This document shows positions 6,629-47,589 of a stretch of 64,000 bases of DNA, piece by piece (positions within the stretch are counted from its first letter, which is position 1; each line of letters opens with the position of its first letter). The stretch is taken from contig MU004190.1 of the NCBI GenBank assembly GCA_010093605.1, positions 1,881,599 through 1,945,598 of the forward strand. Direction: 5' to 3'. Both the position numbers and the translations under genes were made by a program. Source of the stretch: Lophium mytilinum (lineage: Eukaryota). The notes under the pieces are model-generated. The model made no database searches and was not told where the DNA came from. It worked only from the letters and a program-made list of their open reading frames with translations.

Positions 6629-8548
6629 TCAACGTATAAGAACTGACTCTGTCCCATTTCGTACTATTTCCGTTTTCTTAGCCTCCGGTGCGATTGGCAA
6701 AAGTCTCAAACTCGGAACGTACTTCTGGAGGCCCTACAACGATCTGATCAGCTCAATATTCCATGGGCAACAATTTCGACATGGCCAGAGTACTTACTAA
6801 AGCGCAAGAAAGACATGCCAATAACTCCGCTTCCTCAAAAGTGGCGGACATACTGGCACCCCAGGACACAGAGTCATCCCCCTTCAGTCGGCAATTCGTA
6901 ATAGCCATCTCCTGAGTCGTACCACTCTCCGCCCATTTCCGCTCGACAACCTCAAAGGAAAGCTGAAGGCCAGTTCCAATCGCCAACGCGCTGGAAACTG
7001 CAGCGGCAATACCGTCTGCGCTACCGCGAATGTCCCTCGCAAGTCCATTGATGAGAATTGTCGCACAAATCTCAACCTGGCCACTCCTCCCTCGGGCACG
7101 ATATCCATGCTTTAGAATTCTTGCATCTATCTGCCGAACATGGTAGGTTTCCAGGAAAAGATCTTGAATATCAACCGGCGACAGGACTCGGCCAACCTTG
7201 TCTGAGGCACTCTTAACAATCTTCGAGAAGTCCTGCTGGAGAGCCTTCGGCAAATCCAAGTCCACACTCCTCTGCAACGCCCACGCCACGCCACCCTTCC
7301 CACTCTGTGAATTGACCCTGATGACCGACTCATACGTTGCACCTATATCCTTCGGATCAAGAGGAAGATAGGGCACCGTCCAAATGTTCTTCCTATCAGA
7401 CGTCGGGATCTCCCACATCTTGAAGCCTTTATTGATGGCATCCTGATGGCTCCCGCTATACGCTAGGAAGACTGAGTCTCCAGCGTAAGGTGCACGCATG
7501 TGAACGGGAATCCGCGTGAGCCTTTCTACCGTCTTTCGGATTGCTGGGAGATCTGAGAAATCGAGCTCAGGGTTGACTCCTTGGGTGTAAAGGTTCAAGG
7601 CCAGCGTCACAAGGTCCACATTACCAGTCCTCTCGCCGTTCCCGAAGAGACACCCCTCCACTCGAGTAGCGCCCGCGAGTTGACCTAGCTCTGCTGCTGC
7701 AACTGCGCAGCCGCGGTCATTGTGTGGATGCAAGGAGACGACGACGGAGTCATGAGGGAAAGCACGGCAGAAGAGCTCTACTTGATCGGCAAAAGTGTTG
7801 GGAGTGCTCATCTCGACCGTAGCAGGAAGATTCAGGATCACTGGAGTCTCCGATGTTGGATTCCAGGCCTCGCGAACAGCATCGCACAACGCGATGGCGT
7901 ATGATGTATCGGTATCTGAAAAGGCTTCGGGACTGAACATCAGATTCCAGCTCGTGCTCTGCCGATCAGGGTCGTCTTTGGTGATTGACTTGGTGTAGCG
8001 GACGCAGTCCACAGCCAAATCAAAGACGTCCTGCCGCGACAACCCGAAGATGGTGGATTGAAACGCGTCGCTAGACGCAATGTAGAGACTGATAATCGCC
8101 TTCTTTGCACCGGTAACACTCTCGACTGTCCGCTTGATCAATTCGCGACGACACGGCGAGAGGACCTGTAACCATACATCTTCGGGTACAGCGTTTGGCG
8201 TCTCGACAAGCTGGCGCGTGAAATTGAATTCCGTGTTTGAGGCGCTCGGGAAGGCGACGTCGATTTCTTTAAAGCCCATCCGAACTAGGAGGTCAAAGTA
8301 GATCTGTTTTTCTGCTACGGTCATTGGGTGGGCTAGGCTTTGGTTACCGTCGCGGAGGTCTGTAGCGAGCCATCTTGGCGATTTTGTGATGGTTTTGGAG
8401 GGCCAGGTTCGGTCTGGGAGAGAAGGGGGAGCGAAAGGGGCGTATTTCGCGGACGGGTCGCGGAGCCTGGTGGGGGTTAGATCTCGAAGTATACGACTTT
8501 CTGCAAAGCACCGTTCTAGAAAAGTAAGGTTTCCACTTACATTGGCAT
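6629..8548 (-). CDS. LEU4: 2-isopropylmalate synthase-like (divergent LEU4/LeuA paralogue)
   Basis: Spliced start MPMLRDPSAKY...RWLATDLRDGNQSL (intron 8467-8540); motifs FSPE, NLPATVEMS, SLHPHNDRG, GERTGNVDL, SGSHQDAI, RVNSQSGKGG. Predicted 3' intron ~6734-6797. Confidence 0.93.
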
Positions 8549-8712
8549 GGTGGCTTTGGATGGAATTGATTTTGAGGAGCTGAAAAAAAGGTGTACAATG
8601 TCCAAATTTCTTTTGGCGGACACTTATTGGGATCTCCTCGAAGGGACGTCAAATTAGGGATGTTCCCATCAGTACCCCTTGCACACGATCTAAGCAGCCG
8701 AGTTTCCGATTT

Positions 8713-9005: not shown

Positions 9006-10128
9006 ATGTCACCACCAATCCCGATTCTTGATGCTGCTTCCATGGCCAAAGGAACGGGCGAAGAAAGGGCAGCGTTTGGCCATAAGTTCCTCGAGAGTAT
9101 GACCGAATATGGATTTGTGAAACTTGTCAACCACACTGTTCCGCTTCCTGTCGTTGAAGATACGTTCAGCAAAGTAGAATCTCTTACCAAAGAAGTTTTC
9201 AAATACTAATGTTTTTTAGATCAAGCAATTTTTCAAGTTGCCTTTTGACGTAAAGAGGCCAACGATCAATGATCCAAAGAAGGGACAGCAACGTGGCTGG
9301 AGCCCCCCTGGCGAGGAAAAGACATGGTGGTTAGAGAGCAACACTGGGGACGTCGAGTCTCCTCGCTTCAGCGATAACAAGGTAACTTCATCTAGCCATC
9401 ACATTCATTGTTTAACTCATGACTGAACATTGCTTCAGGAAAGCTTCGACTGCGGGGATCCCAAGGACAAGCAGTTCCCGAACCAATGGCCTACTGAGTC
9501 TGCTCTTCCGGGTTACCAATCTACCATGGACCAGTTTTACTACGACTGCGGCCAGCTCTGCGTCGACCTGCTAGAGGTTCTCGCCGCTCAAATGAATCTT
9601 GACCCAAAGCTCTTTTCGTCCAAGTGCACCAACGAAGCCAGCACAATCCGCATCAACCACTTCCCACCCATCGACCGGCAAACCCTCGAAAGCGGCCAGG
9701 TCAGCCGTATCTGGCCCCACAACGACTTCGGCATCATATCCCTCGTTTTCCCCGACCGAACCGGGGGCTTAGAGTACGAAGACCGTGAGAACCCTGGCAC
9801 CTTCATCCCAATGCCGTACAGCGGCGACGACGAGGTAGTCGTTATCATCTCAGAGACCTTCCAGCGATGGACGAACGGCGCTGTGAGACCAGGCTTACAC
9901 CGCGTGACCAAGCCTGTTGACATGGTCGGGGATGTTGTTCCGGAAAGATGGAGTCTGGTGTACTTCTGTAAAGCTGATAGACATATAAATGTTGGGCCGT
10001 TGGAGGAGTTTGTGGGACCAGAGAGGCAGCCACTGTATGAGGATCTGACGGCGCTGGAGTATCAGGCGATGCGGAATGCGGTACACTATCCTGAGCCGGT
10101 AGCGGAGGGGGTTTCGGTGGAGGCGTAG
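9006..10128 (+). CDS. 2-oxoglutarate/Fe(II)-dependent dioxygenase (IPNS-like fold)
   Basis: YGFVKLVNH N-terminal motif, HxD (PHNDFG), distal His (GLHRV), RxS (RWSLVYF). Introns 9174-9219 and 9382-9438. Confidence 0.92.
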
Positions 10129-13267: not shown

Positions 13268-13563
13268 TATATTACGTGACTTCGGACCAGCGTTGAAGAT
13301 AGTATCGGATCCCAGCAATCCGAACACTACTGTGCTCCCAACTATGGATCCGAAGATGACGCATCCACCTTACTCATCCGACTGCTCGGATCCCGACCGG
13401 ACCGAACTTTACGTCAACGGTTACACCTACTTGTTAGCTGGTCCGATCGGTGACACTGGCTTCTTGCTGACAGGGAACGGGTTTGTACGACCTCCTAGCA
13501 ATTCCCGTATCGATTAAAAGACAAATCCAAGACTGCTCGAATTAACAACTTCGCGTCGAAACT

Positions 13564-15950
13564 ATGATAACCACAAAGAAGCCACGAACTCTCTATGAGA
13601 AAATCTTCGATGACCATGTTGTCGTAGAGCGAGATGATGGCACAGTCCTGCTCTATATCGACCGCCATCTGATCCACGAAGTCACTTCCCCAGTACGGAA
13701 ACTCAAATATGCCCTCGAATTTTCAGATACTAGTCTGACTCTTCCACATAGCAAGCTTTCAACGGTTTAGCTTCTCGATCGCTCCCTGTCCGCCAACCCA
13801 CCCTCCAGCTCGCCACCTCCGATCACAACGTTCCCACCACCCCGCGCCCCTATCCCGTGTCCCCGTCCACATACCTCCGCCTCCCCGCCTCACGGCTCCA
13901 GGTCCAAACCCTTGAACGCAACGTCCGGACGCACAAGATCCCCTACCTAGGGCTGAACTCCCGTCGGCAGGGAATCGTGCACGTGATAGGTCCAGAGCTG
14001 GGATTCACGCTCCCCGGTACCACCATCGTGTGCGGAGATAGCCATACAAGTACCCATGGCGCATTTGGAGCACTAGCATGGGGCATTGGTACAAGCGAGG
14101 TGGAGCATGTGTTTGCGACGCAGACGGTCGTGGTGACGAGGTGGGGAAACATGAGAGTTGAAGTAGGCGGGGCTTTAGCAGGAGGTGTAAGCAGTAAAGA
14201 CCTGATGATGCATATCATTGGGACGATAGGTGTGTGCCATTGTAGACCCGTGACTTAAGTGAAGCTGACCGAATGCCCAGGCACGGCGGGGGGCACGGGA
14301 ATGGTGATTGAATTCGCCGGCCCCGTGATCCGAAATATGAGTATGGAGAGTCGGATGGCGCTATGCAATATGTCCATCGAGGCAGGGGCTCGAGCTGGAT
14401 TGATAGCGCCGGATGAGATGACATTCGAGTACGTGAAGGGACGACCTCTGGCACCGACCGGTCCACAGTGGAAGGACGCACTGAAATACTGGAAGCACCT
14501 CTATTCAGATCCTGGAGCCCTTTTTGATAAGACAGTGCGGATTGATGCCACAGCGGTGATGCCCACGGTCACATGGGGCACCTCTCCGGAACAGGTCGTG
14601 TCAATCACCGGCTCGGTTCCAGCTCCAGAAGACTTCGAAGACCTGGTAAAACAAGAGAGTTGCCGGCAGGCGTTGAAATACATGGGCCTAGAAGCCGGCA
14701 CGAAAATGACAGACATCACAGTCGACAAAGTCTTCATAGGCTCATGCACCAACGCTCGACTGGAAGACTTTCGCATCGCCGCTCAGATCGTTCGTGGGAA
14801 GCGGATATCGCCCAATCTCAAACTCGCTCTTGCTGTTCCGGGGTCTGGGGCAGTGAAAAGGGCTGCGGAGTGCGAAGGAATTGATACTATTTTCAAGCAA
14901 GCTGGATTCCAGTGGCGAGAAGCGGGGTGTAGCTTATGCGTGGGCTTGAATGAGGACGCGTTACTGCCCTTCGAACGATGCGCGAGTACGAGTAATCGGA
15001 ATTTTGAGAGCCGCCAAGGAACGGCGGGCAGAACGCATTTAGTTTCTCCAGCGGTCGCCGCTGCGACTGCGATTCGTGGCACGCTGGCTGATGTGCGTCT
15101 TGAAACCACAATGCGATCGGAGGAGGTCTTCGAGGCAATATATGCGTCCGAGAGCGAAGAAGAAGTCGAGAGCGGAAGTGAGGTAAGCGATCCGGAAGTT
15201 AACGCCATTGGCGAACCTAGCGCAGCTCCAGTGGCACGAGGATTGCAGACATCAGCATACTCCACTACTATTCGTGGCAGTGTCGCCATCATCGAGCGCT
15301 CGAATATCGACACAGACGCCATCTTCCCGAAGCAGTTCTGCACCACTATCGAACGTAAAGGACTGGGCGATTGCCTGTTCCAGAATCTCCGCTACTACCC
15401 TGACGGGAAACCTAAAGCGGACTTCATTCTGAACCAGAAGGACCACCGTAACGCTAGTTTCCTGTTAGCCACAGGCCCAAACTTCGGCTGTGGCAGCTCT
15501 CGGGAGCATGCTGTCTGGGCGCTGCAGGATTTCGGGTTCCAGTGCATCTTTGCACCCAGCTTCGCCGATATCTTCTACAACAATTCATTCAAGAATGGGC
15601 TTCTTTTAGTGAAGTTAGACGCCGTACTGATAGCTCGAGTTGTCGAAGCGGTTGGACTGGGACAACAAGTCCAAGTCAATCTTGCTGATCAGGTGTTATT
15701 GGACGAGAGTGGTTCTATGATTGGAAGATTTGATATTGAAAAACACCGGAAGAAAGAACTGATTGACGGCATAGGGGAGATTGAGGTCAGTCTAGCAACA
15801 GTCGAGAGTATTGAGAACTTCGAGAAAGATAGGGGAGCAGCACGGCCTTGGATTGATCAATCGGTGCGCGATGGGTGGAGTTCGAAGTTGGCGAGGGAGG
15901 TCAAGGGAAGGAAACAAACTCGCGCGCAGCCAACGTCTTTAGAATGGTAA
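13564..15950 (+). CDS. LEU1: 3-isopropylmalate dehydratase/isomerase-like, fused large+small subunit (divergent LEU1 paralogue)
   Basis: [68 protein letters not shown]. Introns ~13693-13751 and ~14230-14280. Confidence 0.93.
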
Positions 15951-16047: not shown

Positions 16048-18301
16048 TTAACGAGCGTCTAAAAAATCAAAATTGTCAAAAGAGTCTTTATCAAGTGAAG
16101 GAGTATTGAAAATGCTATCCGGCACGTCTTGAGGGAAATCGAAGTACCCCGTGGAGGGAAAAGATGAGATGTCGAGCTCAAAATTTGCATTCAAGCCAGG
16201 ATCCGTTGGGGTGGAAAGAAAGTCGTCGGAGCCTATCGACGACTCATTGGATTGGCCCGCCAGGTCCATAGCTTCTCCGGTGTTGAGTTTGCGGTGCGCC
16301 ATCAAGTAAAGCTCGCTGATATCTTCGAATAGATTCGGAGCTGCAGATTCATTGGTGCTGAGTCTTCCAAAGTACCCGCAAGCCATGCCAAGGAAAGGCA
16401 GGCAGTCCTTCCCCACTTCTTGCTTGCAAATGGAGATGAAGATTACGACGGCAGAAAGAAGCGGTATGAATATGCGGTGCCTACGGCAGATCAATAACTA
16501 AGCCTTCGGTCTGCGACGGTACGGTATCAATACTTACCAGTCTAGCTCGTGATCATCGAGGCGGAAGTAGTGTGTCCAAAGAAGTACCCCCTTTGCCAGT
16601 TCGATGCAATGGTCGCGGCTCGAAGCGTACGCCGTAGTTGCATCTGACACGACATTGTGTTCGATGACCGCCCAGCGGTGAATGGCGAAGGATGCCTCTA
16701 CATATTTCAGAAAGATGTCTGATGGAATGCATGTATCCCAAGACCGATTCTGAAAAGCTGACGAATCAAGGTTACTGTCTGGGCGGTAAGCGGCCGGTAT
16801 GGACATTCTCCACGCCTCTAGCATCTTGGAAAGCCGATCGATAGCGGCCAGAATTTCAGAGCGACTCATTCTCAGAGCTGCGTGGCTGTATAGTGTCTTA
16901 ACAATGACGGAACAGAGCCGGGCGTAACGGTAATGGACAACGTCCCAGCCTGCTCGGCTATCGTCTGTGGAAAATATAGAGTCTCGCCGCTTCGAAGGTG
17001 CAAGGAAGACAATAAGGTCGTCATCAATCATGGAATGACTGCCGAATCGTAAACTGAACGGCTTCTCAATAGAGTAGAGGAGCCAAAAGACTCGTTGGAT
17101 CTCTTGTTGCTGATTATCGTCAACTGCTGTTGAGAAAGGGCTTTTCGGAGCTTTTGAGATGAGCTCTTGAATCGTATGGATTGCTTGCGATAAGATTGAT
17201 CTCATCAATGATACATTACGGTGCTGTCTTAGATAAAGGGCTAACACCGTCAGAGCCTGTAGTTTCAAAAACGACGGTTGCCCATCTGTGAGGTCGTTGC
17301 GGTGCTGCAGTGCACGTGCGAAGTATTGGGAAGGCCAATAGATGGCTTTGGCGTGTATGGGATTGCATCGTGGAGAGTCCTTGCGAATTGCGCTGCGGCA
17401 TCCGATTGCGAGGACTCCATTGAGCAGTGTGTACTCGTCTTGATCGACAGTGCTGGACGAGGCGGCAACTGTAGCTACGATATCTTCGATGTGTTGACGC
17501 CTGACGAACGAAGGATGACCATAGCAGCTGTTGAAGAAGACATTGATGAAGTGCGTAGTTTCTGGATCTGCATATGATGGGATAGAATCCCCTTGGTTTT
17601 GAGAGTTGACAGTCTCGGGAATTCGCCGTGACTTCGTCCATGTTTGCTTTGACAAGACCGAGAGATGGTCTTTCGACGGCGGACTTTCTGAGAACCGGTC
17701 AATGAACTGCAATGGGCCTAATGATGAGAAATCGGTGCATAGATCCTCAGCCCACGACTTGCTCCACCCGTGGTCAGCCCTGACGGGAATGTCATGATCG
17801 AGCGGATGGTGGTCGTTTTCAGTCCTTGACGGGGAGTCAAATAATTGCCAACCATCTCTTTCAACTGCGAACGCGCTGGGCTCAAGGATGTCGTCCAGGA
17901 TGATATCGGGGATGCTGGGTATGTCCTGGGAGTTGCCGCTGAGGCTCGATAGACGATTGGAAGTGTTGCGCAATAGCTCCCAGCTGGCTACGTTGCGTTC
18001 GGATAGTGTCGGTGTTATGGGCTGGCTGAATCTTCTTTCTATAGTCTGCTGGGAAGTCTGGTATGAGCATATTAGTGCTGATTTCTGCGATGGAGAAAGC
18101 GTCAGCGACAGAATAAATGTCGTCGTATGTATAGAGAGGATCTTTACCATGCATTGAGAACACGTTGACGACCCGTCGCCTGCAAAGGTCAGTGAGAATC
18201 ACATAGCATTGGAACCTAAGCTTACATCTGACTTTTCGTAGCCTACAATTATGACAGGCACCTTTGCGACGTGTAATCTTACGAGCGCTTTTCCAATCCA
18301 T
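16048..18301 (-). CDS. Zn(II)2Cys6 transcription factor with fungal-specific TF domain
   Basis: Spliced N-terminus ACHNCRLRKVRCDGSSTCSQCMKSALICSY has all six Cys; downstream RVFWLLYSIEK motif. Last intron near 16480-16537. Confidence 0.88.
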
Positions 18302-19380
18302 AATAGCAAGCGATGGCAAGTAGGCGGATATGGTGGCGAGGCCTCATCTATGCCAAAAGGATGATGACACCCCCGTGTAGTCGACGAATGGGACGAACAC
18401 TTCTCAATGCTTAATGAAGTAACGAAAGAAGCATACTTAGGGTGTTTGTGAGAGTCTTGGGGGACATGGGTTCTCCAGGATGCCAAGCTGACTTTAACGA
18501 CGTGCGGGATGTAAGCAGAGAACCGAGTAGTGTCCTGGAGTAAGCGATGATGAGTAGATGCTGCACTGAGAGTAGATCTGATCCTGCAGGCTATAACATG
18601 GGGGCAGCTTGGGTCCGCAGACTAAGCTTATAGTGTTGTGTAACCCACCTACAGAATCCTGGTTGATGGAAGTCGGTCGAGAAGCTTACCCAACAATGAA
18701 ACGTATAGACGCGGAGAAGCTGTGACGGATATGTGGGTTGTAAGCCACGTAAGTCACCCCTTTTGGAGAACGGATTGGTCTGCAAACTGCTGACAGATGA
18801 AGGACTGATCTACTAGCTTATTTTAGGGTACCATACACCGACTCTTTGGAGTCGGGTTCGACCCATGTTTCTTTGTTCATGGGCCATGTTACCGAAAGAC
18901 AGTTTACAAATTGCCCCATGTCGTGCAACGTAACGCATGCTGAGGCAACAGTCTGAAGCCTGAGCAGGAGAAAGCTACCTGAAAGAGGTCAAGGTAACTC
19001 TGACAGTCGTTGTTTTCAAGGTTAAGAGCTCTATCGAATACGTATGGATAGTGGTGACCAATGGAGCCTTTGCATGGCTTCGAGCCTTCTGAGATGCAGG
19101 GAAGTCTCATAGCAGATTAAATGTCCCGCAATTGCACGATGTTGCACAAATAGAAATGGGCAAAAAGGAAAGAATCATAGGGACCGACATCATACATGTG
19201 CGGGGACTTACATATCCCAACCAATTGTAGAGAGTTCTAGGAGCGCTTCACGAATGGGGAGAACATAGCGGAGCGATTGCTTGATCGAAAAGTGCTCAGT
19301 GCTGAGAATTGACAGACAGATCGCAATTTCGAACCGTCTTTTCAAGATGGCTTAATCTAATAGGAATGATTCAAAGCATC

Positions 19381-20620
19381 CTACCTACTGATACGATCGA
19401 CAATCACGCTCCATTCATGTTCTTCAACACCATACTGCCTATGCTCGATCCAGTTTTTCATCAATGTAGCCACTTTCCCTGCGTTCTGCGTAGGAGCGAG
19501 GCCGCAATCCACCAAGTCTTCTTTCCACTTGATAGCCTTGACAGGGCTAACGACAGCAGCGGTTCCTGTGCCGAAAACTTCGACCGAACTCCCGGTCTGC
19601 GAGGCGCGAGCCACCTCCGCCATGCATATTCTACGCTCGCTGATGACCCAACCGAGTGGTTGAAGTCGTTCACGGGCGAGGCTTAAAACACAATCGCGCG
19701 TGACGCCAGGTAGAATCATGCCATCTAACGGCGGTGTGACGATTTCGAACTTGTCGTGCCCTGGAACTCGAAGTACGATAAAAAGGTTCATAGTTCCAGC
19801 TTCGGTTATGTCGTCATCATCTCCAAAAAGCCAAAGCAGTTGTTGAAACCCGCGTCCCTGAGCCGCCTTCTCCGGAGCAATACAGGGTGCGTAGTTCCCA
19901 CCAATCTTTTGATTGCCGGCCCCTCCTGGCCATGCTCGAGTGGCATACGAGCTACTCGCTGCTTCAAGCCAAATGGGTTTGAAGCCAGCAGAAAAGTAGG
20001 GTCCGACAGGGGAGGCTACCATGTAGAGAAGGGCTGAAGTAGGTGCGGAGACCCCAAGCCCACGATTCGTACCAATAAGTACTGGACGGAGATAGAGCGA
20101 ATATCCTGGGCGTATGGAGATAAACTTTGCTTCAAGCTTGACAAATTCTGCGATCAGCTTCAGTAACTCTTCAGAGTTGAACTCAGGTAGCGCTATTCTG
20201 GCTGCCGACTTGTTGAAGCGTTCGAGATTCGCATGAGGCCGAAATAGCCTAATCTGGCCCGTTGAATCCTTGTAGGCCTTCATGCCCTCGAAACATTCAA
20301 ATCCATAATGGAAAACGCAAGCAGTCGGGTCGAGAGAGATTTCCTGGTAGGGGATGATGCGCGGCCGCTGCCACCCATAGTCTGAGGTCCACTGGATTTG
20401 AAGCATGTGGTCTCGAAAACAGATTAGTGTGGCCTACAGCAACCACAATTTCGTGCTCAAGCTTACCTGTGACATGCTTTCCGAAAGCAAGGTCTTCATC
20501 GGGAGGTGCTCTAGACGGATGGGAATTCTGCGTGACTTGTAGTAAAGAGGCATCAAGTGCTGCGGGTGAAGGAAGCGTCTGGACGTACTCCGGAGAGGTG
20601 GCGAGGAGTGCTGGGGCCAT
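19381..20620 (-). CDS. Branched-chain amino acid aminotransferase (PLP class IV)
   Basis: FHYGFECFEGMKAY, LYLRP, catalytic Lys in KIGGNY, EAGTMN, ILPGVTR, GTAAVVSPV. Start MAPALLATS at 20620; intron ~20413-20467. Confidence 0.93.
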
Positions 20621-21362
20621 ACTGCGCAAGGCTACATCTACACCATAGCCGCCGTTCTTGCAAGCTTTCCATAGGCTCTTATTCCCGTGCTGGGCGACCC
20701 ATGGGACGCGGATCGAGGGTCCGACTGCCGCAAAACAAAGCGCTTGACGGTACGGTCCGTTCGGACCGCAACGGTTCGGTGGATAGGGGTACGTGCATAG
20801 CGTTGACACATAGGAACACTTTTTTTCGGCATCGCCGGAGGACGCTTGCTGCCTGCTTATGGTGGCAAGGGGTTTGGTTTTGGAAATCTGCTGTGCGACA
20901 TCGGAATTGGCGGCAAGTAAGCACGGCGGGTCCTTGCAGAAGCCCCGGGGGGGATATTGTTGGATACGGGGTGTTTTAGCGACATATGCATCGAGCACCT
21001 GCTGGTGGCGAGCCGCATTGCTCGTGAGGTGTGATGGACAGAGGAGGAGGAGAGGTCCTCACTGAGGATTTGGGGATCTCTTGGCGAGAATGAGTCAGCA
21101 GCACGTCTTCAATTAAGGTTCGTGCGTATTCTATTCTCTTTCACGCTCTAACGTCATCCAACCATCCACGCCCTTCGATTGATCCAAGGTTAGCTTATGG
21201 GCCGCCTGAAACACTGGTCCCCGCTGCATCCCGACTGACGGTGGGATGAAAGCCTCTACACTTGCCATCAGGAAGCTTCGAGCCACCTTCGAGAACTTTT
21301 TCTTACGGCAGGTTCAATTCTAAACTTCTCCCAGGATCTTTCATTGTACATATCTCTTTACG

Positions 21363-22892
21363 ATGTCTGACAGCTGCGCAGAGCTTACCGCTCTCCCATC
21401 CGTATCGCACAAGAATCCCGAGTGCCTAGATCCAACTGCCGTCCGACCTGGAAACGATACAATTGGAAATGAAGATGGCTTAGTATCAAAGGAGGTCATC
21501 GGCGATGAGCCCGATGCGATCGAACAAGTCTCCGAGTCACACTCTTCCCATGGCCAAGAATTTTCCCTTCCTCCTGTCGATGGTGGAAAAGATGCATGGC
21601 TCTTCTTGGCGGCTTGCTTCGTGGTTGAGGCTCTTGTCTGGGGTATGTCAAACCCACTTCCACGCTCATGCCACGGTTCTAACGAAAATCCTAGGTTTTC
21701 CCTTTTCGTACGGTGTATTCCAAGACTACTATTCAACCCACGAGCCGTTCCAAGGGTCGAGCAATATCGCCGTGATCGGCACTTGCGCAATGGTGAGCAG
21801 GACACCAAAAGGCCCAGGGCCATTACTAAAGTTCACCAGGGCATCATGTATCTCGACTTGCCCATCGTGTTCGCCATTCTTCGCCGTTGGCCACGTTCTC
21901 AACGTTACGCGACTGTAGGCGGCCTGCTCGTTATGTGCCTAGCTCTCGCTCTCAGTGCCTTCTCAACCAACACCAACCACCTGATTGTCACCCAAGGCGT
22001 TATTTACGCTATCGGCGGCAGCTTTGCTTACTCCCCTTGCATCCTATATATGGATGAATGGTTTGTAAGGAGGAAGGGTCTGGCTTATGGCATCATGTGG
22101 GCTGGCACCGGCCTGGCGGGCGTCGTCCTTCCGCTCTTCATGCAATGGCTGCTGAATGCATACGGCTACCGCACCACGCTCCGGGTATGGGCCATCTGCC
22201 TCTTCGTCCTGACAGCTCCGCTTCTGTACTTCGTCAAGCCCCGGATCCCGGTCGCGCAGACCCACCAGCCTCGTCCACTCGACTTCGGCTTCTGGCTCAC
22301 GTCCACATTCGGAGTGCTGCAGACCTGCAACGTCATCGAAGCACTCGGCTTCTTCCTTCCGTCGATCTACCTTCCGTCATACGCACGAAGTTTGGGCGCC
22401 TCGAGTGCTCTTGCCTCGCTGACTGTCGTTCTCTTCAACGTCGCCTCCGTCTTTGGCTGCGTGCTCATGGGCTCCATCGTCGACAAGTGGCACGTCACTA
22501 CCTGCATCCTGATCTCCACCATCGGCTCAACCATCAGCGTCTTCATCATTTGGGGGTTCTCCATGTGTCTACCACCGCTGTACATCTTCTGCCTCGTCTA
22601 CGGACTCTTCGCGGGAAGTTTCACGAGCACGTGGCCAGGGATTATGCGCGAAGTGCAGAAGAAGAAAACGAGGGCAGACCCGAGTATGGTTTTTGCGTGC
22701 CTGGCTGCTGGAAGAGGCATTGGCAATGTGGCGTCGGGCCCCTTGAGCGAGGTCTTGATTCGAGGCATGCCTTGGCGTGGAGATGTAGCCTTCGGGTACG
22801 GGAGTGGCTATGGCATACTGATCGTTTTCACAGGTATCACTGCGTTCTTCGGAGGTGCCAGCATTTTCGGAAGACGCATTGGCTGGGTATAG
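21363..22892 (+). CDS. MFS transporter, monocarboxylate porter family
   Basis: PPVDGGKDAW, WFVRRKGLAYGIMWAGTG, YLPSYARSLG and multiple TM segments. Introns ~21644-21694 and ~21793-21839. Confidence 0.9.
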   Translation: MSDSCAELTALPSVSHKNPECLDPTAVRPGNDTIGNEDGLVSKEVIGDEPDAIEQVSESHSSHGQEFSLPPVDGGKDAWLFLAACFVVEALVWGMSNPLPRSCHGSNENPRFSLFVRCIPRLLFNPRAVPRVEQYRRDRHLRNGEQDTKRPRAITKVHQGIMYLDLPIVFAILRRWPRSQRYATVGGLLVMCLALALSAFSTNTNHLIVTQGVIYAIGGSFAYSPCILYMDEWFVRRKGLAYGIMWAGTGLAGVVLPLFMQWLLNAYGYRTTLRVWAICLFVLTAPLLYFVKPRIPVAQTHQPRPLDFGFWLTSTFGVLQTCNVIEALGFFLPSIYLPSYARSLGASSALASLTVVLFNVASVFGCVLMGSIVDKWHVTTCILISTIGSTISVFIIWGFSMCLPPLYIFCLVYGLFAGSFTSTWPGIMREVQKKKTRADPSMVFACLAAGRGIGNVASGPLSEVLIRGMPWRGDVAFGYGSGYGILIVFTGITAFFGGASIFGRRIGWV

Positions 22893-31554: not shown

Positions 31555-32427
31555 TCGGGTGGTTGGCGGCACAGTCTCTGTGCTGCGAAGGTAGTTGAGT
31601 ATGGCTAGCAGCAACGTGCCTTGTTTATCTTGTGAGCGAAGTGCTGCGGCGCCGGCGCTAGGGCGGAAGTAAGATGCTCGTCGGCGCGGGCCGAGCTCGG
31701 GCTGCAGCACGCACAGCAGCGTCGAGTCGCGATCGGCCGTCATACAGTACAACATGGGCAATAGAATAACATGCCAGCAAAATTGATCTTAGCGAAATAC
31801 AATGCCAGAAAACGCCATGGGGACCGTGTAGGACCGAGACCATGCCAATACAGGCCTAGAAGCTAGCTTCTAAGCTCAATTAAGCACACCCCTGGTCCTC
31901 CACCGTCCCCATGGCGTTTCCTGGCATTGCACAACTATATACAGGCCTCGGCCGTAGTATTAAGGCTCAATTTGCACGTGCCGTGCATCACGTAATTGCC
32001 TGCGCAGGAAGCACACCGCCATCACCACCACGCCGTAGAGGGCCTCTACCTAAGCCTCCAAATCGCACCAGGCTCTATAGGATCAATTCCAATAGATCAG
32101 CGCCTCTAAGGCCCTCCTGGAGGCGCTCAACAAGCGCCAAATTGCCCAAATTAGTAATAGATATACGGGTTGAGTTGTTAAGGATGCAGGCGAGCTGCCA
32201 CGCCGTAGGAAGCTGTAGAGGAGTGGATTTGCAGGCTTCGTGGGCCTCATCCGGTTAGAAGAGCTACAGACCGACTTTTGCTGTAGCTGCACCAAGGATC
32301 TATCTACTCGTATTCCTACACCGTGTCAGTAATGAAAAAGTGATGAAAATCAACGGATTTTAATGCCGTGAAGCCGTGAGAACTCACCATATAGAGGCCC
32401 TTTCCGTGCCTTTTTAGAGGCCTCATC

Positions 32428-32508
32428 GCCATCATCCTGCAGCGTTGCCATCATTCTACAGCCTTGCCATCATCGTGCAGCCTTGCCATCATCGTGCAGC
32501 CTTGCCAT
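32428..32508 (+). repeat. 19-bp minisatellite (~4 copies) in the MULE 5' region
   Basis: Repeated GCCATCATCGTGCAGCCTT and variants. Confidence 0.85.
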
Positions 32509-32546
32509 TAAGCTTCATACTTCCCATTCTCTCCATCATCATCGCC

Positions 32547-34716
32547 ATGGAGTCCTCCGGTGTTCCTAAGGTCGGTAAGGCCTACGGTACCTTCCAGGAG
32601 ATCAAGGACCTCTGCCGTGAGGTTGCTGCAGAGGGAGGATGGAGAATCAAGGTTCTCGTGAGTGATAAGACTCGAATTGACCTGCGATGCGGTGCCATCG
32701 TGCCATGCCCGTGGCGCCTCTATGCAACTCAGCGAGTTAATAACACAATTAAGGTTCGAAAGCTCATCAACAAGCACCACTGCATCGGCGCACCGCCCCC
32801 TCAGCGCCTGGAACAGTCGCGATTGAAGTTCCTAGTTAATCACCTTCCTCTCCTTGGCTCCATCAACCGGAAGACGCCGACGGGCGACATCCAGGCGCTG
32901 GCTGCGATGCATCTAGGAGGCCCGATCAACGACTTCATGGCGCGCCAGGCGCGTCGAATAATAGCCGGCGAGGACGAGAGGTCCATTGAGGATAACTACA
33001 CGAAGATTCCGGAGTATTTGGAGCGCCTCAAGGTCGAGAATCCTGGTGTTTCTACTAATCTAGTGCTTCATCGCGGTGCCTTCCAGCGCGCCTTTATGTG
33101 CCCAGAGGAGAGCAAGAGCTTCCTCATCTTCAGCCTCAGATGGCTCGGCCTCGACGGAACGCACCTAAGGAACGGGTACAAGAATATAGTGTTGATTGCG
33201 ATTGGAAGAGACCAGAACAACAAGGTCTATCCGCTTGCCTGGGCAGTCGTAGAGAGCGAGAACAATAAGACGTGGGCGTGGTTTGTAAGGAAGCTGAAGG
33301 AGGCGTTGCCCGGGCTTAAGGAGGGCTCAAAGTACACCGTTTGTTCGTAAGTTCAATTTTCGTTGTTTGTTGACGAATTTCGAGTAGACATCCGTGCGTT
33401 TGTTTATGGCGGGGACAACAAGTAGAAACGCGTCGATTTTGGTGAGAAATCGCGTGTTTTGTACGCGAGGTCCCATCACAACAAACAATGCACGGATGGA
33501 TACGAAAATCACAACAGCCCCCTCTCGATTTCCGCACCCCCCTCCGCAACAGCGCCTACACCTCTCGATTTCCTTCCACATACTCCTCGACGCCGCAGTC
33601 AATTTCTACGCCTATTTTTGCAGTCCCCGTCGACTACGCTGTCCTACACAGTGGATCCTTCAAAAATGCACCTGCTTACACCGTTTTTTTCGCAGCAATC
33701 GCGATAAAGGCCTCCAAAACGCCATTGACAGTCTCCTTCCTCGCCACCATGGTGTCTACTGCGTCTGGCACCTGGCAGAGAACGTCAAGAAGCACTACGG
33801 CGCTGCCTGCTCGAAGCTCTTCTTCCAACTAGCCCTCGCCGCCGAACAGGCCGAATTTAATCGAGTGATGGCCAAGATCACGTCCTTAAGGCCCGCCGCC
33901 GCGGCCTATATCAACGCCATAGACTCGCGGCGATGGGCGATAAAGGACACGCCTGCGAGGCGCTTCGGCCATGTCACAAGCGGTGCAAATGAGTCCTTCA
34001 ATGCGACTATCCGGGGCGACAGAGAGCTATTAACACTGCGCCTTTTAGTGTCTCTATGGAGCCGTGTAATAGAGATGCGCGCCCAAAGGTACGCTCTGGC
34101 CACGGCTCATCAGGCTGAGCTCATGCGTGTTCCTCCTAGAGAGGCATGGGGGCATACTCAATCCTTCACGCCCTTTAGGCAAAAGCTCCTAAAGCGCAAC
34201 CTCCAGGAGGCCACAGGCTACAAGTGTCGGATTAATGCGCACGTCGCGCTTAATCACGATGCCCACGCGGCCACCGTTCAGCATCATTTTAACGCCAAGG
34301 TCCACATTGTAAGGCTCAATCGGAAGGAATGCACCTGCAGAGAGTTCCAGAATCACGAGTTTCCATGCCGCCATGCCATCGTCGTCATCTTCGCCATTAG
34401 AAGACGTGTTAGCCACTACTATAGCCACATCTACAAGACTCACATGTGGAAGAACAGCTACGCCTCTATACTCATTGAGGGCCAGCCGGAACGTCGATTG
34501 ATGCAGCCGGTGAGAGTTAATAACCTCCTGCCAGGCCCTTCCTCTCAACCGCCTCCAAAAAAGAAGCAAGCAGGCGCTGCGCAGCGCAAGAGGAAGCAAT
34601 TCGGCGACCGCTATTCGGACGGAAGGGCGACTATTAGAAATAAGTGTGGAATCTGTGGAGAAACAGGGCACAATGCGCGCAGTAGGCGTAAGTGCAGAGG
34701 CTATCCAACCATCTAA
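32547..34716 (+). CDS. MULE transposase
   Basis: N-terminal C-x5-CPW...H-x-C zinc motif, LDGTHL, PLAWAVVESEN, CVWHL, ANESFN, SWIM CTC...FPCRH and C-terminal CGICGETGHN. Intron 33347-33695. Confidence 0.92.
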
Positions 34717-36013: not shown

Positions 36014-37538
36014 ATGGGCATCGAGAAACTGAATCCGAAAGACTACAACAAACTGTTTCTGAACGGCCAGTACGTTGCCGCCAAGAGCAAAGAGACATAC
36101 AGCCTCAAAAATCCCAAAGACAACACCGCGGTCATCGACGATGTGCCCATTGCCGGGCCGGAAGACGTCGACGCCGCCGTGAAGTATGCCGAAGAGGCCT
36201 TCCACGGGCCTTGGAGTAAATTCACAGCGATCCAGCGGACCGAGTGCTTTCTTAAATTGGCGGCGCTGCTTGACGAAGAGCTCACGCCAATTCTGACGCT
36301 GGACTCGCAGACCTCGGGCATCCCCATCTCCCTGGCCCCAGTCCGTGAGCGGGGTTATATCAGGAATTGCGTGTTGTACTATGCAGGATGGACCGACAAG
36401 CAGAAAGGAGACTACTTTCCCGATGATGATGGTAAGTGGAGAAGGTGGACAAAGGTTCGTGACTGCAGCTAATGCGAAGTGCATTTCAGGCTACGTAAAA
36501 CTTGTTCGACATGAACCGCTTGGCGTGTGCTGTGCCATTAACCCTTTCAATGCTCCTTTGGCAACCCTTTTCCTGAAGTCTGCTCCGGCACTCGCCACCG
36601 GGAACGTCATGATTGTGAAACCTAGCGAGAAGACGCCTCTGGGAACCTTGGCTGCTGCACAACTATTTCTCAAGGCCGGCTTTCCTCCTGGAGTCCTCCA
36701 AGTCATCACAGGAGCCGGTTCTACGGGCGCTTTGCTTGCCGAGCACATGAAGATCCGCAAGGTCAGCTTTACGGGCTCAGTGACGACAGGCAGGAGGGTC
36801 CAGATCGCTGCTGCTAAGAGCAACTTGAAGCGCGTCACGCTTGAATTGGGAGGCAAGAGCCCAGCCGTCGTCTTCGATGATGCGAATCTCGAAAACGCCG
36901 TAACATGGACCGTGAATTCAATTTTGATACGAAGTGGCCAGCTTTGCGTAGCTCCCTCAAGAGTCTATGTCCAGAAGGGAATCGCGGAGAAGTTCATCGA
37001 CGCCTATAAGAAGAAGATGTCGGCAGCTGCGGATAATCTGGGGGACCCCCAGGATCCTAACGTTACTATGGGGCCCATGGTTGATGCAGCTCAGCTTGAG
37101 CGGGTCAAAGGCATGGTAGAGCGGGGAAAGTCCGAGGCTGAGCTGGTGGTCGGAGGCAACCAGCGCGGTGATACAGGGTGTTTCATGGAACCAACCGTGT
37201 TTCTAAATCCGAAGAGTGACGCTGAGATCTATCGAAATGAGATATTCGGCCCAGTCAGCGTCATCAAGACATTCGAGACCGAGGAAGAAGTTCTCAAGCT
37301 AGCTAACGACACCGAGTTCGGTCTCATGGCTGGAGTATTCACAAAGGACATCAACCGAGCTTTGCGTATGTCCTCCGGCATGGAAGCAGGTGTTGTTGGT
37401 GTCAATTGCGTCAGTCTGCAAAATATGCAAGCGCCGTTTGGCGGCAAGAAGCAGAGTGGTATTGGGCGAGAGATGGGTGAGTATGCCTTGAGGTTATTTA
37501 CTGAACCGAAGACAGTCCTGATCAATATGGCCGCATGA
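36014..37538 (+). CDS. Aldehyde dehydrogenase
   Basis: PFNAP, KPSEKTP, SFTGS, LELGGKSP, catalytic Cys in GQLCVA, EIFGPV, PFGGKKQSGIGRE. Intron 36432-36489. Confidence 0.95.
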
Positions 37539-37831
37539 TAAGCGGTGGTTGCTGCACCAGAATATAATATTTTGAATATGTGCATTTTCTCAGTTGATTC
37601 TATTTGAGCGAACACTCTGCCACAATCATCAGTCCCCAGAGCTTGATTACCAGAATCACAACCACCCCTATATTTCGATCAGATGATTGATTCATAGGGC
37701 CGATGCTCTGATTCAAGACTTCTCATCTTGCAGCTCCCAAACAGCGAACATGTCAAATGTGCCCCACAAAACGCTCCAGAAGTATCAAGTGAATGGAGAA
37801 AAGTTCATATAGTAGATGTAAGCAATGAATA

Positions 37832-38839
37832 CTATTCTATTAAAAACCTGTCAATAACGAATTCTTTAATGTGCGCTGCTAGTTCATCAGCCGCCTCCAT
37901 GGGAGACCAGTGCGCACAATCAAGAACAACCTCTTTCAAGTCAGGCACGAGACCCATGTCTCTCGCTGGCGCCATCATCTCTGGCACACAGACGGCATCT
38001 TTTGAACATAAGAAGAGCAAAGTAGGCACCTCAATGGCCAAGTTGCCCTTCGAAATGGTTGAATCAGACTCCGACTGTATGTTCGAAGCAGTGGCCTTGT
38101 ACATCTGCAATGCGGGAGCGAATCCCTCCTCGCTTTTGAACTGCTTCATGAACTCTTCCTTCCGTCCTAGCTGGCTGGCGTACGGTTTCAACGGCACCTC
38201 CTCAGAGCCGAGCAAGAAATGGCGGAAAGCATTGGGAACGCAGAACAGCTTCTTCATCCAGTCATCCACATCGCCGTGTAACGCTAGCCACATCCTTTCT
38301 AGATTGGCGTCAATGATCTCAGCAGCATCCGGTGCAGTGAAAAGCTCCCAATATGAAAATTGTGGATACCCTAAAGCTTTTTCCGTAATTTCATTCACGG
38401 CAGCGAGGTCAAATGGCGCATCTGACGGGACCAAATACGGGGTGTTGACGAGAGCTACGCCAACGAAGAGCTCGCGTTTGTGAAGATAGGCACGTTGAGC
38501 GAGTGCGCTGCCCCAGTCATGTCCAATGATGATAGAGGATTCAGCTTTCTCGGCCTTGAGGATGTCCTCGAGGTCGTCTGCTTGGTCTTTGTATGCGTAC
38601 AGCTTCGTATCGGAGGGCTTATCTGTACCCGCGTATCCCAGGCAGTCCGGGACTATGATCCTATTGGGTAGACTGCGTAGTGTGGCGACCACGCCGGACC
38701 AGAGATGCGCCGAATCGGGGAAGCCGTGGATGAAGAAAAGTACCGGGTGCTGCGTCGTGGATTCGTCGTAGGGAGAGACATAGTAAGTGTACTTGAGCGA
38801 GCGACGCGTGGTGAGCACTTTTTGCTGGAGAAAGTCCAT
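37832..38839 (-). CDS. Alpha/beta-fold epoxide hydrolase
   Basis: HGFP oxyanion motif, GYAGT, GHDWG (Asp nucleophile), candidate lid tyrosines in SYW and QMY, C-terminal AHW. Confidence 0.85.
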   Translation of the reverse strand: MDFLQQKVLTTRRSLKYTYYVSPYDESTTQHPVLFFIHGFPDSAHLWSGVVATLRSLPNRIIVPDCLGYAGTDKPSDTKLYAYKDQADDLEDILKAEKAESSIIIGHDWGSALAQRAYLHKRELFVGVALVNTPYLVPSDAPFDLAAVNEITEKALGYPQFSYWELFTAPDAAEIIDANLERMWLALHGDVDDWMKKLFCVPNAFRHFLLGSEEVPLKPYASQLGRKEEFMKQFKSEEGFAPALQMYKATASNIQSESDSTISKGNLAIEVPTLLFLCSKDAVCVPEMMAPARDMGLVPDLKEVVLDCAHWSPMEAADELAAHIKEFVIDRFLIE

Positions 38840-39496
38840 TTCAAGGGACAGATTGATGTTCGAAATCGGGAGCTCTTGTCAAAGTCACGTGCCAGACTCT
38901 AGAAAGGCACTCTACTAGCAAGGAAGTCGACCTCCAAAGAGATCCCGGAACTTTACGAGTCCCATAAAAACGCTGTTTTCTCAATGTTTATAGACTTACC
39001 CGTGAGTATTTGCTGATGGTCGGAAATGTCGGACCGAAGTGCAAGAGTCTGTAGCACATGCCTCGGAGCTTGAATAGTCCTTACCCTACTGTGTGGCCCT
39101 GATGATCGACGAACTAGAGTAACAGTTTTCCGAGCAATATGCTTCCCCAGACAGCTTAGTCCGGGGTAGAACGAGCTATCAACCCACAAAAGGGGAATGC
39201 GTCATGCACAAAAGGTCGAGCTGCTTCTCGATTGGCCAATTTTCTTCGGATATGCGATGATTCGAGTAGCCTAGCTTTTCCGTAACCCCAGCTTCTCCGC
39301 AGAGGTATTCTAGCTATGCACGAAATTCTCCCTCCTTCAATAAGTCATCTAGCTTGGCTTGAGCGAGAATTGGAAAAGACGTTTCTTGATCGGCCTACTG
39401 ATAAAAGTCTCCCCTCTCGCCTTCCCTATGCATTGAGTAATTGAACTTTCCCCGTCTCGCTCAGAAACATCAGCTGGCAGCTGCGAACAACAAAAC

Positions 39497-42148: not shown

Positions 42149-42899
42149 GCATTAGGTGTTTACTACTTGTCGAGGTACAAGAGATGAAATGCTGAAGATT
42201 TTGGAACGTGCAGACTCATCATGCCTCCGCAGGGAGGCTCAGCTGGTGGATCTGCTGTAAGCTTTGACTTCACATGTAGTTTTTGTCAGGTGATTCCGCT
42301 CAGGCTACTTGGTTCTTGGCGCTGGCTAATACTATAGCCGCCAAGCTCGGAGGATGCATAAAGAATCAACACCACTTTCTTGCAATGATCAGTACTTCTG
42401 CATGCCTTCATGATACTAGTTCTCCACAGGCAATGCAAAAAGCTTTCTGTTTTCTATTGCGTGGTAAATATACTGAAATTTCACCAAGAACGGCAACGTT
42501 GGACGCGTAGGTTCAACAGTTCATTTGCCGGGAGTAATGCCCCGGATGAAGTCGGTCATGGCCGATGATCGACAATACCGTCCAGCTCTGCGGATAGAAG
42601 ATCTGTGACAAGTCTCGGCGCCCGCCGAATACGTGCACCAGCGCGCGGAAATTTCCGAGGTGCTACACCGGGTAATCTGATTTCGGCCAGGAAGACGCAG
42701 ACCGAAGAGACCCTTGTTTTGATACGGGACCTTACCAGGGTTTCAGAATATCATCCCCAGAATCCGGGGACCCCAGGGATAGAAACATTCTTGGCGGTTT
42801 GCATGATAAGCCAACGAGTCGCGACCCCACAGTATATACTCTCATCTTTTCCACATCAAGACGCTACTCACTCTACCACGCATCATAACCGCCACTACC

Positions 42900-44810: not shown

Positions 44811-45357
44811 AAACAGACAGAGAGGCGAAGTGAATGCGACCACACTTTTTTATTTGATTTACGGATTGTGGATGAAATCAAGGGCCATCAGCTTTCTTAT
44901 TCTGGTCATACGTAGTCAGCAGTATAGGATAACATACAGCAAGCTTTTACTGTCAGAATGCTGATGCGGAACGCCCAGTGATCATTCCAGAAAAGCTGTG
45001 GCTATCTGTTGTTTGCTCAACTTATTGATCAAAGACATTTCTCATGTTGAAAATGCCTGGGCGTAATACATTTCAACAGGACCTAGCCGAAAGCGTGTTA
45101 CTTCGGCGTTTGGACGAGATGGAAGGCGTGTGTGTCTCTGCTCGAGTTAGACTCTATGCAATTGCCGTTATGGGCAAGGAAAGAGGCGAGGTACGTATCT
45201 GCGAAGACCGCTATCTCCTTCTGTTGGGATGAGAAGCGGTAAAGTCCTCTCCACTGTCGTAGATGTGCGCTCTGTGTATGACAAAGAAGGAGCTGGTTAC
45301 ATAATAATACACGTTCGTCATTGTCTGAAACACCGCAAGTCTATCAGTCTACACTAT

Positions 45358-47084: not shown

Positions 47085-47589
47085 GTCGAAACTCGGCTAC
47101 GGATGAGGAACTGTTGTACCCGCGAAAATGCAGAACACGTCAAAGATGTCTAGTCGCGCAAGACAAATCACATCAATGAAGCTTTAGAATGAATCGTAAG
47201 ATATAGAGCGATATTTCAATGGGTCGGTTGTAGTCGGACAATGTCCTTGCGCGCCGAACGATGTTGGCCTGACCGTCCATGGCCTGACTGGACGATGCCG
47301 ACACAGCCAGTAGTATGTGCTAGCTGCATCATGGTGAGGGGCGGAGAGGGATATCCCTGGGCCTGGGGCGAAGCGAAATGCGGAGTACTCTAGTCTCTCC
47401 GCTGCAGTGGCGCCGGATATCCGGCCCTTGCCGAGGTGCCTCAACTGCATCTCCATGGTCGGGAACAATAGCCGACCGCTGTAGTGGTGTGATGCGTAGC
47501 AACACGCAGTCCTTTGGGGCTTTGAACGTTAACAAGTTCATTCGCGCCGCTGCCATTGCTCCTCTACCGCCTTCCACGTGCTGTTAACC

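Follow-up and report, generated by a model that had tools for sequence, protein, structure and literature searches.

The analysis deals with a gene for a 2-isopropylmalate synthase (IPMS) homologue and its neighbours in a stretch of 64,000 nucleotides from Lophium mytilinum (assembly GCA_010093605.1, contig MU004190.1, positions 1,881,599 to 1,945,598 of the forward strand), which is called the window here and within which all positions are counted. The gene lies on the minus strand at 6753..8548, with its ATG at 8548 and its stop at 6753. It is predicted to consist of a first exon of only 8 nt (8541..8548, ATGCCAAT, read as Met-Pro-Me..), a single intron of 74 nt (8467..8540, GTAAGT ... CTAAC ... 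CAG) and a second exon (6753..8466 including the stop), which together encode 573 amino acids (aa). Exon 1 and the intron have been read from the sequence, and exon 2 is an open frame matched by Pfam and by PDB 1sr9; residue numbers in the following refer to exon 2 (1-570) and are raised by three in the full protein. The original prediction, made from the letters of the window, had given the synthase a span of 6798..8324 and has thus covered only part of the gene. In the long open frame (6753-8648) no Met precedes the catalytic domain, and splicing of exon 1 to exon 2 yields MPM-LRDPSAKY.... The two-exon model has been adopted because it agrees with the N-termini of two database proteins, namely the Mytilinidion resinicola orthologue P0003, which starts with MPMLRDPSQKY, and the annotated L. 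mytilinum protein P0002, which is identical to exon 2 over residues 1-537 and in which three residues precede LRDPS. The public model of P0002 follows the open frame only up to residue 537, and its remaining sequence is unrelated (window 6753-6860); the uninterrupted frame, which reads ...FEEAELLACLSCAL..., fits the consensus of related proteins as well as the Mytilinidion protein, and an error in the annotated C-terminal intron is probable. Many database entries of the fungal lineage to which the gene belongs (S-clade, see below) have 500-520 aa and no N-terminus, which is probably due to the 8-nt first exon.

Active site and regulatory domain of the synthase

The similarity searches are uniform in their outcome. 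Exon 2 is matched by the Pfam families HMGL-like (PF00682, 3e-71) and IPMS_D2 (PF22615, 5e-29), the synthase matches Mycobacterium tuberculosis (Mt) LeuA (PDB 1sr9) in phmmer with an E-value of 1e-148, the top full-length Foldseek matches are the Mt LeuA entries 1sr9, 3hps and 3fig, and the ESM Atlas has returned generic IPMS clusters only. By sequence, the gene is predicted to encode a long-form IPMS homologue that has its three-part architecture, fold, and catalytic and metal-binding residues in common with the canonical enzymes (fungal Leu4/LeuC type; Mt LeuA 1sr9/3fig), but differs from them in carrying Ser, Met, Leu and Ala instead of His167, Glu214, Phe249 and Thr219, and in the absence of the GxGNGP loop. 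A citramalate or homocitrate synthase has been considered and rejected: PDB examples of these enzymes match with E-values of 1e-8 to 1e-5 only, and the pocket has changed towards smaller or hydrophobic residues, unlike the residues that we take to be present in those enzymes.

The phmmer alignment with 1sr9 places Ser126 (codon 8088..8090, within KKAIISLYIASS, translated from 8070-8105) on His167 of Mt LeuA. The segment L175-M-F-S-P-E180 (LMFSPE, 7926..7943) falls on F213-E-Y-S-P-E218, with Met176 at the position of E214, while Ser178 and Glu180 retain S216 and the catalytic E218; Leu211 (7833..7835), a Phe in canonical enzymes, adjoins Asn212, the equivalent of N250. In the C-terminal part, G481-S-A-D-G-I486 (7008..7025, within the translated IRGSADGIAAA, 6999-7031) falls on G529-S-G-N-G-P534. 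BLASTP against Escherichia coli (Ec) K-12 LeuA accordingly aligns Ser126 with His97 and Met176 with Glu137, and Ser139, Asn167 and Pro169 are retained. The motifs DLRDGNQ (8340..8360), with Arg38/Asp39 as the equivalents of R80/D81, and HPHNDRG (7710..7730), with His246/His248 as those of the metal ligands H285/H287, are intact; all of these elements lie on the minus strand. The substitutions that the original prediction had described, i.e., His to Ser at Mt H167/Ec H97, LMFSPE for (F/Y)E(F/Y)SPE, and GSADGI for GxGNGP, are borne out by these alignments, in which the Ser does sit at the His position, and the intact catalytic motifs and the proposed equivalences (Mt His167 with Ec His97, and the GNGP loops) have proved right as well.

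The remaining active site is well preserved. In comparison with 1sr9, Arg80, Asp81, Leu143, Tyr169, Ser216, Glu218, Asn250, Pro252, Thr254, His285 and His287 are kept, and the set of equivalents of R80, D81, E218, T254, H285, H287, H379 and Y410 is complete; H340 and Y366, which correspond to His379 and Tyr410, are invariant across the alignment of the query with its 120 best hits, and R80/D81, E218 and H285/H287 are conserved in both clades distinguished below wherever rows cover the column. With an intact 1.7-kb frame and all catalytic residues, the synthase is probably active. The 2-oxoisovalerate pocket is taken by us to comprise Leu143, His167, Tyr169, Ser216, Asn250 and Pro252 (Mt numbering), with His167 presumably lining the part that holds the isopropyl side chain. 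Among these six residues only His167 is replaced, by Ser, and the other five are unchanged; Glu214, Phe249 and Thr219, which are conserved beside the pocket, are also replaced.

The C-terminal part forms a shortened, divergent domain of the regulatory type (6777..7118, minus strand, residues 450-563). The last 150 residues match no Pfam family, LeuA_dimer (PF08502) included, with the E-value limit raised to 10; in a canonical fungal IPMS, LeuA_dimer scores 1.8e-21. Within the S-clade the mean pairwise identity drops from 0.752 in the catalytic part to 0.375 in the C-terminal part, as compared with 0.840 and 0.670 among canonical enzymes, and the C-terminal part has a median length of 140 aa versus 198 aa, being ∼58 aa shorter. 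An AlphaFold2 model derived from a 54-row alignment (mean pLDDT 84.9, pTM 0.80) nevertheless predicts a twofold beta-beta-beta-alpha arrangement for residues 450-563 with a pLDDT of about 90, and GSADGI is located exactly at the junction between a strand and the helix 486-498. According to the model, the regulatory domain is altered with its fold kept and its sequence signature gone, so that of the claimed loss of the leucine-feedback motif the replacement of the loop stands, but not a loss of the domain itself. The domain has perhaps been retained for dimerization and substrate binding, with the ligand loop free to vary. The N-termini of two regulatory-domain helices have been described to flank the carboxylate of leucine (PMC11057210), and the patchouli isobutylmalate synthase (IBMS) PcIBMS1, which keeps a divergent C-terminal domain, has been reported to be insensitive to 10 mM Leu (bioRxiv 10.1101/2021.09.28.462264). 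The synthase is likely to be leucine-insensitive as well, as far as the altered loop can tell.

A paralogue lineage of fungal synthases

The main alignment comprises the query and its 120 best database hits, 58 of them without and 62 with a Pfam match to LeuA_dimer. Position 167 is Ser in all 59 rows formed by the query and the 58 hits without this match, and the 62 canonical rows all have His. The same partition is seen at position 214 (Met in 55 and Val in 4 of the 59 rows vs. Glu in 62/62), at position 249 (Leu in 58/59 vs. Phe in 62/62) and at position 219 (Ala in 58/59 vs. Thr in 62/62), and the canonical loop G-x-G-(N/T/S)-G-(P/A) has turned into variable sequence across the S-clade rows. 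Judged from these columns, the changes at His167, Glu214, Phe249 and Thr219 are a clade-wide and ancient signature that coexists with normal IPMS, and not a private loss of this gene. Identity to canonical fungal enzymes amounts to 51-54%. In a maximum-likelihood tree of the 68 rows of at least 480 aa (56 S-clade and 12 canonical rows, shorter rows being dropped), the S-clade is monophyletic and split from the canonical enzymes with a support of 100 in the Shimodaira-Hasegawa-like approximate likelihood ratio test (SH-aLRT). The query belongs to a subclade of 25 rows from Dothideomycetes, lichen fungi and Leotiomycetes, the sister of which (19 rows) contains Aspergillus, Penicillium, Talaromyces and Chaetomium; altogether the S-clade spans five classes of Ascomycota, namely Dothideomycetes, Lecanoromycetes (lichen-forming), Leotiomycetes, Eurotiomycetes and Sordariomycetes. 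A search with an S-clade profile has added six further members, followed by canonical enzymes only among its 120 best hits.

Canonical IPMS proteins with a LeuA_dimer domain have been found in L. mytilinum itself (P0146) and in Mytilinidion resinicola (P0132), and both species thus carry the S-clade gene as an additional paralogue; Delitschia, Lasiodiplodia and Diplodia likewise carry both kinds. With its separate clade and a canonical copy in the same species, the synthase is not an orthologue of the housekeeping leucine enzyme. A duplicate in decay or without function would be in line with the degenerate sequence of the regulatory domain, but it is very hard to reconcile with an intact frame, with all catalytic residues kept, with a catalytic-domain identity of 75% across five ascomycete classes, and with substitutions that are strictly conserved instead of random and go along with a conserved linkage to a dioxygenase gene (see below). 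We regard such decay as extremely improbable.

Replacement of His167 as such is not confined to the S-clade. A wider alignment has been made of the query and 150 cluster representatives (50% identity). His occupies this column in 107 of the 125 rows that cover it, and another residue in 18, with Ser in only two of the 18, i.e., the query and the representative of its own clade. A second fungal lineage (Penicillium atrosanguineum, Diplodia corticola, Pseudocercospora musae) is remodelled more heavily, with H167 changed to F/L, E214 to G/N/S, S216 to G, N250 to G/C/S and P252 to A. In a 45-row tree the S-clade (support 99) has this second lineage together with one Colletotrichum sequence as its sister (support 87), and both are joined with a support of 96, separate from the canonical IPMS of ascomycetes. 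An S-clade gene and one of the second lineage occur together in Diplodia corticola, which, judged from its relatives, also has a canonical copy. The second-lineage proteins P0274, P0275, P0292, P0323, P0359 and P0361 exhibit a drastically opened pocket that echoes the engineered E. coli mutations, and some of these six, with 740-1080 aa, may be fusions. Further variants without His have been seen in basidiomycetes (Trametes, Lentinula) and in Xenorhabdus; for the representatives of the non-His lineages species names have been obtained, and no functional names.

The second lineage bears on the question whether the S-clade synthase could extend aryl-pyruvates. HtyA and GloH, which serve homotyrosine formation in echinocandin and pneumocandin biosynthesis, and AMT7 of the AM-toxin pathway have been described as fungal IPMS paralogues (PMC7778625, PMC4294208, PMC8102738). 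According to the available text of these reports, the hty and AMT cassettes combine the IPMS-like synthase with an aconitase-type isomerase and a transaminase, the same set as in the window, and one S-clade member originates from Aspergillus mulundensis. By analogy, the synthase would accept 4-hydroxyphenylpyruvate or phenylpyruvate and lead to homotyrosine or homophenylalanine. This likeness is one of cassette descriptions, and the described cassettes also hold their own isopropylmalate dehydrogenase (IPMDH) and a non-ribosomal peptide synthetase (NRPS), neither of which has been found here in 54 kb. Aspergillus mulundensis, for its part, is presumably an echinocandin producer. None of the 120 best hits, in single-sequence and in profile searches, is named HtyA, GloH or AMT7 or comes from Glarea or an apple-pathotype Alternaria, and S216, N250 and P252 are kept in the S-clade pocket. 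The second lineage, with its larger pocket changes and its coexistence with an S-clade gene in Diplodia corticola, is the better candidate, and we suspect that it holds the aryl-pyruvate enzymes (HtyA, AMT7). For the S-clade such a role appears improbable.

The gene neighbourhood and the dioxygenase partner

The window has been searched with Pfam in 39 picked open reading frames (ORFs) of at least 68 aa (36 of them from 63 ORFs of at least 130 aa) and in 103 gap ORFs of at least 65 aa. Divergently transcribed from the synthase is the gene of a UcsF-like Fe(II)/2-oxoglutarate (2OG) dioxygenase (9006..10128, plus strand, exons 9006-9173, 9220-9381 and 9439-10128), which combines the DIOX_N and 2OG-FeII_Oxy architecture with a close similarity to UcsF: exon 3 alone matches UcsF (PDB 9ktp) with an E-value of 2e-52, and the Mytilinidion orthologue P0153 (97% identical) does so over its full length with 1.6e-69. 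UcsF presumably resembles EcdK. UcsF and DetxE, from the UCS1025A and destruxin pathways, have been reported to convert free L-isoleucine into 4-methyl-pyrroline-5-carboxylate, from which a housekeeping pyrroline-5-carboxylate (P5C) reductase completes 3-methylproline (PMC8233208). The neighbour dioxygenase thus belongs to a family whose members oxidize free branched-chain amino acids at the terminal methyl group, a reaction that leads to a cyclic imine. The two known systems differ in their proteinogenic substrate isoleucine, and a pairing with an IPMS paralogue has not been described in the accessible parts of their source.

The divergent pair recurs outside L. mytilinum. It is present in the window and in the three metagenome loci L001, L002 and L007, with S-type genes of 75, 71 and 50% identity, respectively, which amounts to four of four distinct S-type loci with a readable upstream gene at the position of the dioxygenase candidate. 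In L002 an isomerase gene adjoins the pair, followed by housekeeping genes. L004, L005 and L006 (56-60% identity, motif SLCFSPE) are near-identical to each other and count as one locus, in which a major facilitator superfamily (MFS) gene takes the place of the dioxygenase upstream of the synthase. On L006 (1-15400), the more distant Ser-type synthase is accompanied by the MFS pump, by three 2OG oxygenase ORFs, by a P5C reductase, which the window cassette lacks, and by an AMP-binding ORF truncated at the contig end; this setting resembles the same design in an NRPS-linked form. Furthermore, equal sizes of the longest contig have been used to place dioxygenase orthologues alongside S-clade synthases, with an identity of 64-97% in 13 taxa or assemblies and of 49-51% in two more, 15 in all, and in Teloschistes flavicans and Aspergillus nanangensis the locus tags of both genes are adjacent.

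Four further genes complete the candidate cassette. A Leu1-type 3-isopropylmalate isomerase with fused large and small subunits (Aconitase, Aconitase_C) is encoded at 13561..15950 on the plus strand, with approximate ends and with an intron at about 14231-14281, read from the sequence, besides others; its small-subunit part matches isopropylmalate isomerase (IPMI) small subunits in the PDB with an E-value of 5e-36. The isomerases of the window and of L002 (1030-3413) have PKQFCTT where three bacterial IPMI small subunits have P(K/A)(Q/V)FL. The loop may reflect a matching change of specificity in the second enzyme of the pathway, though weakly so, the comparison having been made against bacterial small subunits with no canonical fungal Leu1 among them. 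Beyond it lie a fungal-specific transcription factor (16537..18621, minus strand, Fungal_trans 4e-10, ORF-based and approximate), a class IV (branched-chain) aminotransferase (19384..20640, minus strand, Aminotran_4 2e-29, main exon 19384-20433 with an approximate N-terminal exon upstream) and an MFS transporter (21324..22892, plus strand, MFS_1 2.5e-20, ORF-based). A self-resistance copy of a target enzyme has been considered for the synthase and is unlikely, as three pathway steps are duplicated together.

The gene content also allows a pathway that ends before the oxidative decarboxylation, at an alkylmalate or alkylmaleate as in the belactosin and cystargolide beta-lactones, with the dioxygenase acting on the diacid. 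No dehydrogenase has been found in the cluster, and in bacterial beta-lactone clusters an IPMS homologue has been described to deliver 3-isopropyl- or 3-sec-butylmalate building blocks (PMC11408123). However, the clustered aminotransferase and a dioxygenase family that oxidizes amino acids argue for an amino-acid product, and a methyltransferase, an ATP-grasp enzyme or a beta-lactone synthetase has not been seen among the window ORFs by Pfam. A missing LeuB, moreover, is no obstacle in the mycoplanecin case discussed below, and we consider an end at the diacid quite improbable.

Possible function, comparable systems and the rest of the window

Taking clade and neighbourhood together, we hold it to be fairly probable that the S-clade synthase has been turned from leucine synthesis to specialized metabolism, in which a leucine-insensitive elongation of a 2-oxo acid would feed a homo-amino acid to the dioxygenase. 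The synthase would keep the Claisen condensation of acetyl-CoA with a 2-oxo acid to a 2-alkylmalate. With the far end of its side-chain pocket apparently remodelled by four replacements (His by Ser, Glu by Met, Phe by Leu and Thr by Ala) and its leucine-sensing loop gone, it would most likely accept a substrate other or larger than 2-oxoisovalerate and escape the shut-off by leucine. The clustered isomerase, a housekeeping IPMDH and the clustered aminotransferase could complete the one-carbon homologation to a non-proteinogenic homo-amino acid, probably an aliphatic one, of which the UcsF-like dioxygenase would then oxidize a terminal or branch methyl group. Spontaneous cyclization and a housekeeping P5C reductase might finally yield an imino acid of the alkyl-proline or methyl-pipecolate type, which could leave the cell through the MFS pump or serve a synthetase elsewhere. 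The original prediction, which had proposed a feedback-insensitive elongation synthase with an enlarged pocket, is partly supported: its first element is strengthened by the clade structure and the gene neighbours, while the enlargement of the pocket is a modest proposal, with one of four engineered positions affected. A more specific version seems possible, if short of probable, namely that the Ser/Met synthase and the UcsF-like dioxygenase constitute a widespread route, not met with in the papers searched, that starts from a branched-chain 2-oxo acid, passes through the homo-amino acid and ends at a new imino acid of the alkyl-proline or methyl-pipecolate type, which in this genome would be released free and exported without a peptide synthetase, the synthase being a minimal natural '+1' enzyme that ignores leucine.

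The closest pathway logic is found in mycoplanecin biosynthesis, where the IPMS-like MypK of Actinoplanes elongates the C6 2-oxo acids 4-methyl-2-oxopentanoate, 2-oxohexanoate and 3-methyl-2-oxopentanoate, LeuB and LeuC have been supplied from primary metabolism in the reconstituted pathway, and the 2OG hydroxylase MypE together with ProC converts homoisoleucine into 4-ethylproline (PMC10817943). A clustered synthase (MypK), isomerase part (MypL) and transaminase, a borrowed dehydrogenase, and a 2OG oxygenase (MypE) acting with ProC recur there as far as the source describes them; it differs in being bacterial, in having a GriE-type hydroxylase instead of the UcsF-type here, and in the presence of a dedicated dehydrogenase (MypF) and an NRPS. 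MypK is likened to the S-clade by this logic and not by sequence. As the mycoplanecin pathway borrows LeuB, the missing dehydrogenase, otherwise the main objection, does not stand in the way. In engineered E. coli LeuA (H97A/S139G/N167A/P169A/G462D), H97A has been reported to extend the products to longer 2-oxo acids, and G462D to abolish feedback (PMC3370425). The S-clade has changed the His97 position naturally, but to Ser instead of Ala and paired with a change of Glu137 to Met, and S139, N167 and P169 are untouched. Independent origins from IPMS, with pocket changes and a lost or decayed leucine regulation, are represented by plant methylthioalkylmalate (MAM) synthase (PDB 6e1j), PcIBMS1, tomato IPMS3 and apple citramalate synthase, which differ in descending from the short (E. 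coli/plant) type of IPMS and in the pocket positions affected, with IBMS changed at the Leu143 equivalent. The MAM pocket changes are S216G and P252G.

Several observations weigh against the proposed elongation pathway. L143, Y169, S216, N250 and P252 are unchanged, i.e., five of the six residues that we take to line the pocket, and only one of the four engineered E. coli positions (H97, S139, N167, P169) is altered; the pocket may therefore have changed only slightly, and the synthase may continue to accept 2-oxoisovalerate readily. The regulatory domain, being predicted to fold with high confidence, could bind leucine differently or respond to another effector. In the window, an F-box gene intervenes between dioxygenase and isomerase, neither Iso_dh nor P5C reductase has been detected, and Condensation and AMP-binding/adenylation domains, as signs of an NRPS, have no match among the 39 and 103 ORFs, so that the proposed pathway leans on housekeeping enzymes. 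In other genomes the synthase and the dioxygenase are mostly placed together by equal longest-contig sizes, which are indirect evidence, and not by DNA that has been read, and the trees have been built without the HtyA, GloH, AMT7 and MypK sequences.

The same conserved pocket residues (L143, Y169, S216, N250, P252) and the lost leucine-site loop would suit a deregulated supply of leucine, which is the chief rival. The synthase would condense 2-oxoisovalerate without feedback, and the excess of leucine or 2-oxoisocaproate would pass to the UcsF/EcdK-like dioxygenase, which might form a 5-oxidized leucine and, from it, 4-methylproline. The family of this dioxygenase has indeed been described to act on ordinary branched-chain amino acids (PMC8233208), and feedback-free IPMS isoforms of plants reportedly boost Leu-derived products (bioRxiv 10.1101/2021.09.28.462264; PMC12994207). 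However, an escape from feedback needs changes in the regulatory domain only, whereas His167 and Glu214 are both replaced in every one of the 59 S-clade rows. In all 62 canonical fungal enzymes, and in those of the bacterial loci L008-L021 in which the motifs could be located, these two residues are invariant, and an unchanged substrate would hardly account for their replacement. The substrate loop of the isomerase paralogue also differs, as a weak further point. We therefore consider the leucine supply unlikely, in favour of the elongation of another 2-oxo acid.

That IPMS paralogues are recruited for 2-oxo-acid elongation with loss of feedback is well known from fungi, bacteria and plants; new here are the lineage's own Ser/Met pocket signature and the conserved partnership with a UcsF-like dioxygenase. 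Most S-clade entries are annotated as '2-isopropylmalate synthase', 'aldolase' or 'pyruvate carboxyltransferase', and among the database matches listed none gives the S-clade a functional name. In open-access full text we have found no paper on the S-clade and no mention of the locus tags CHGG_10714-10718; an Alternaria study on S-TeA places its IPMS, in the available part of the text, in the general branched-chain amino-acid pathway. The '+1' elongation enzymes derived from IPMS are workhorses of metabolic engineering and supply unusual amino acids of drugs such as echinocandins and mycoplanecins. The S-clade is a conserved fungal lineage defined by a compact pocket signature unlike the engineered one, and its cassette of about 16 kb and six genes is small and testable, as a possible route to a new non-proteinogenic amino acid and a putative source of a naturally deregulated synthase. 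For genome mining, these paralogues can be told apart from housekeeping IPMS by the combination of LMFSPE with a Ser in place of His167.

The remaining part of the window holds features of a different kind. Two adjoining ORFs at 32418-34716, in which a MULE transposase domain and a SWIM zinc finger have been observed, suggest that a Mutator-like transposon separates the cassette from the genes that follow. Redox and transport functions prevail in a series of genes at 36297-50537 (aldehyde dehydrogenase, alpha/beta hydrolase, FAD-binding fragments, an intron-split sugar-type transporter, a short-chain dehydrogenase and two flavin monooxygenase-like ORFs); this series may represent another metabolic cluster, and a link with the cassette has not been seen in it. 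At about 54000 to 64000 the GC content is only 21-28%, after a sharp fall from about 58%. The gene-rich part of the window ends at this AT-rich block, which extends over at least 10 kb and resembles those produced by repeat-induced point mutation.

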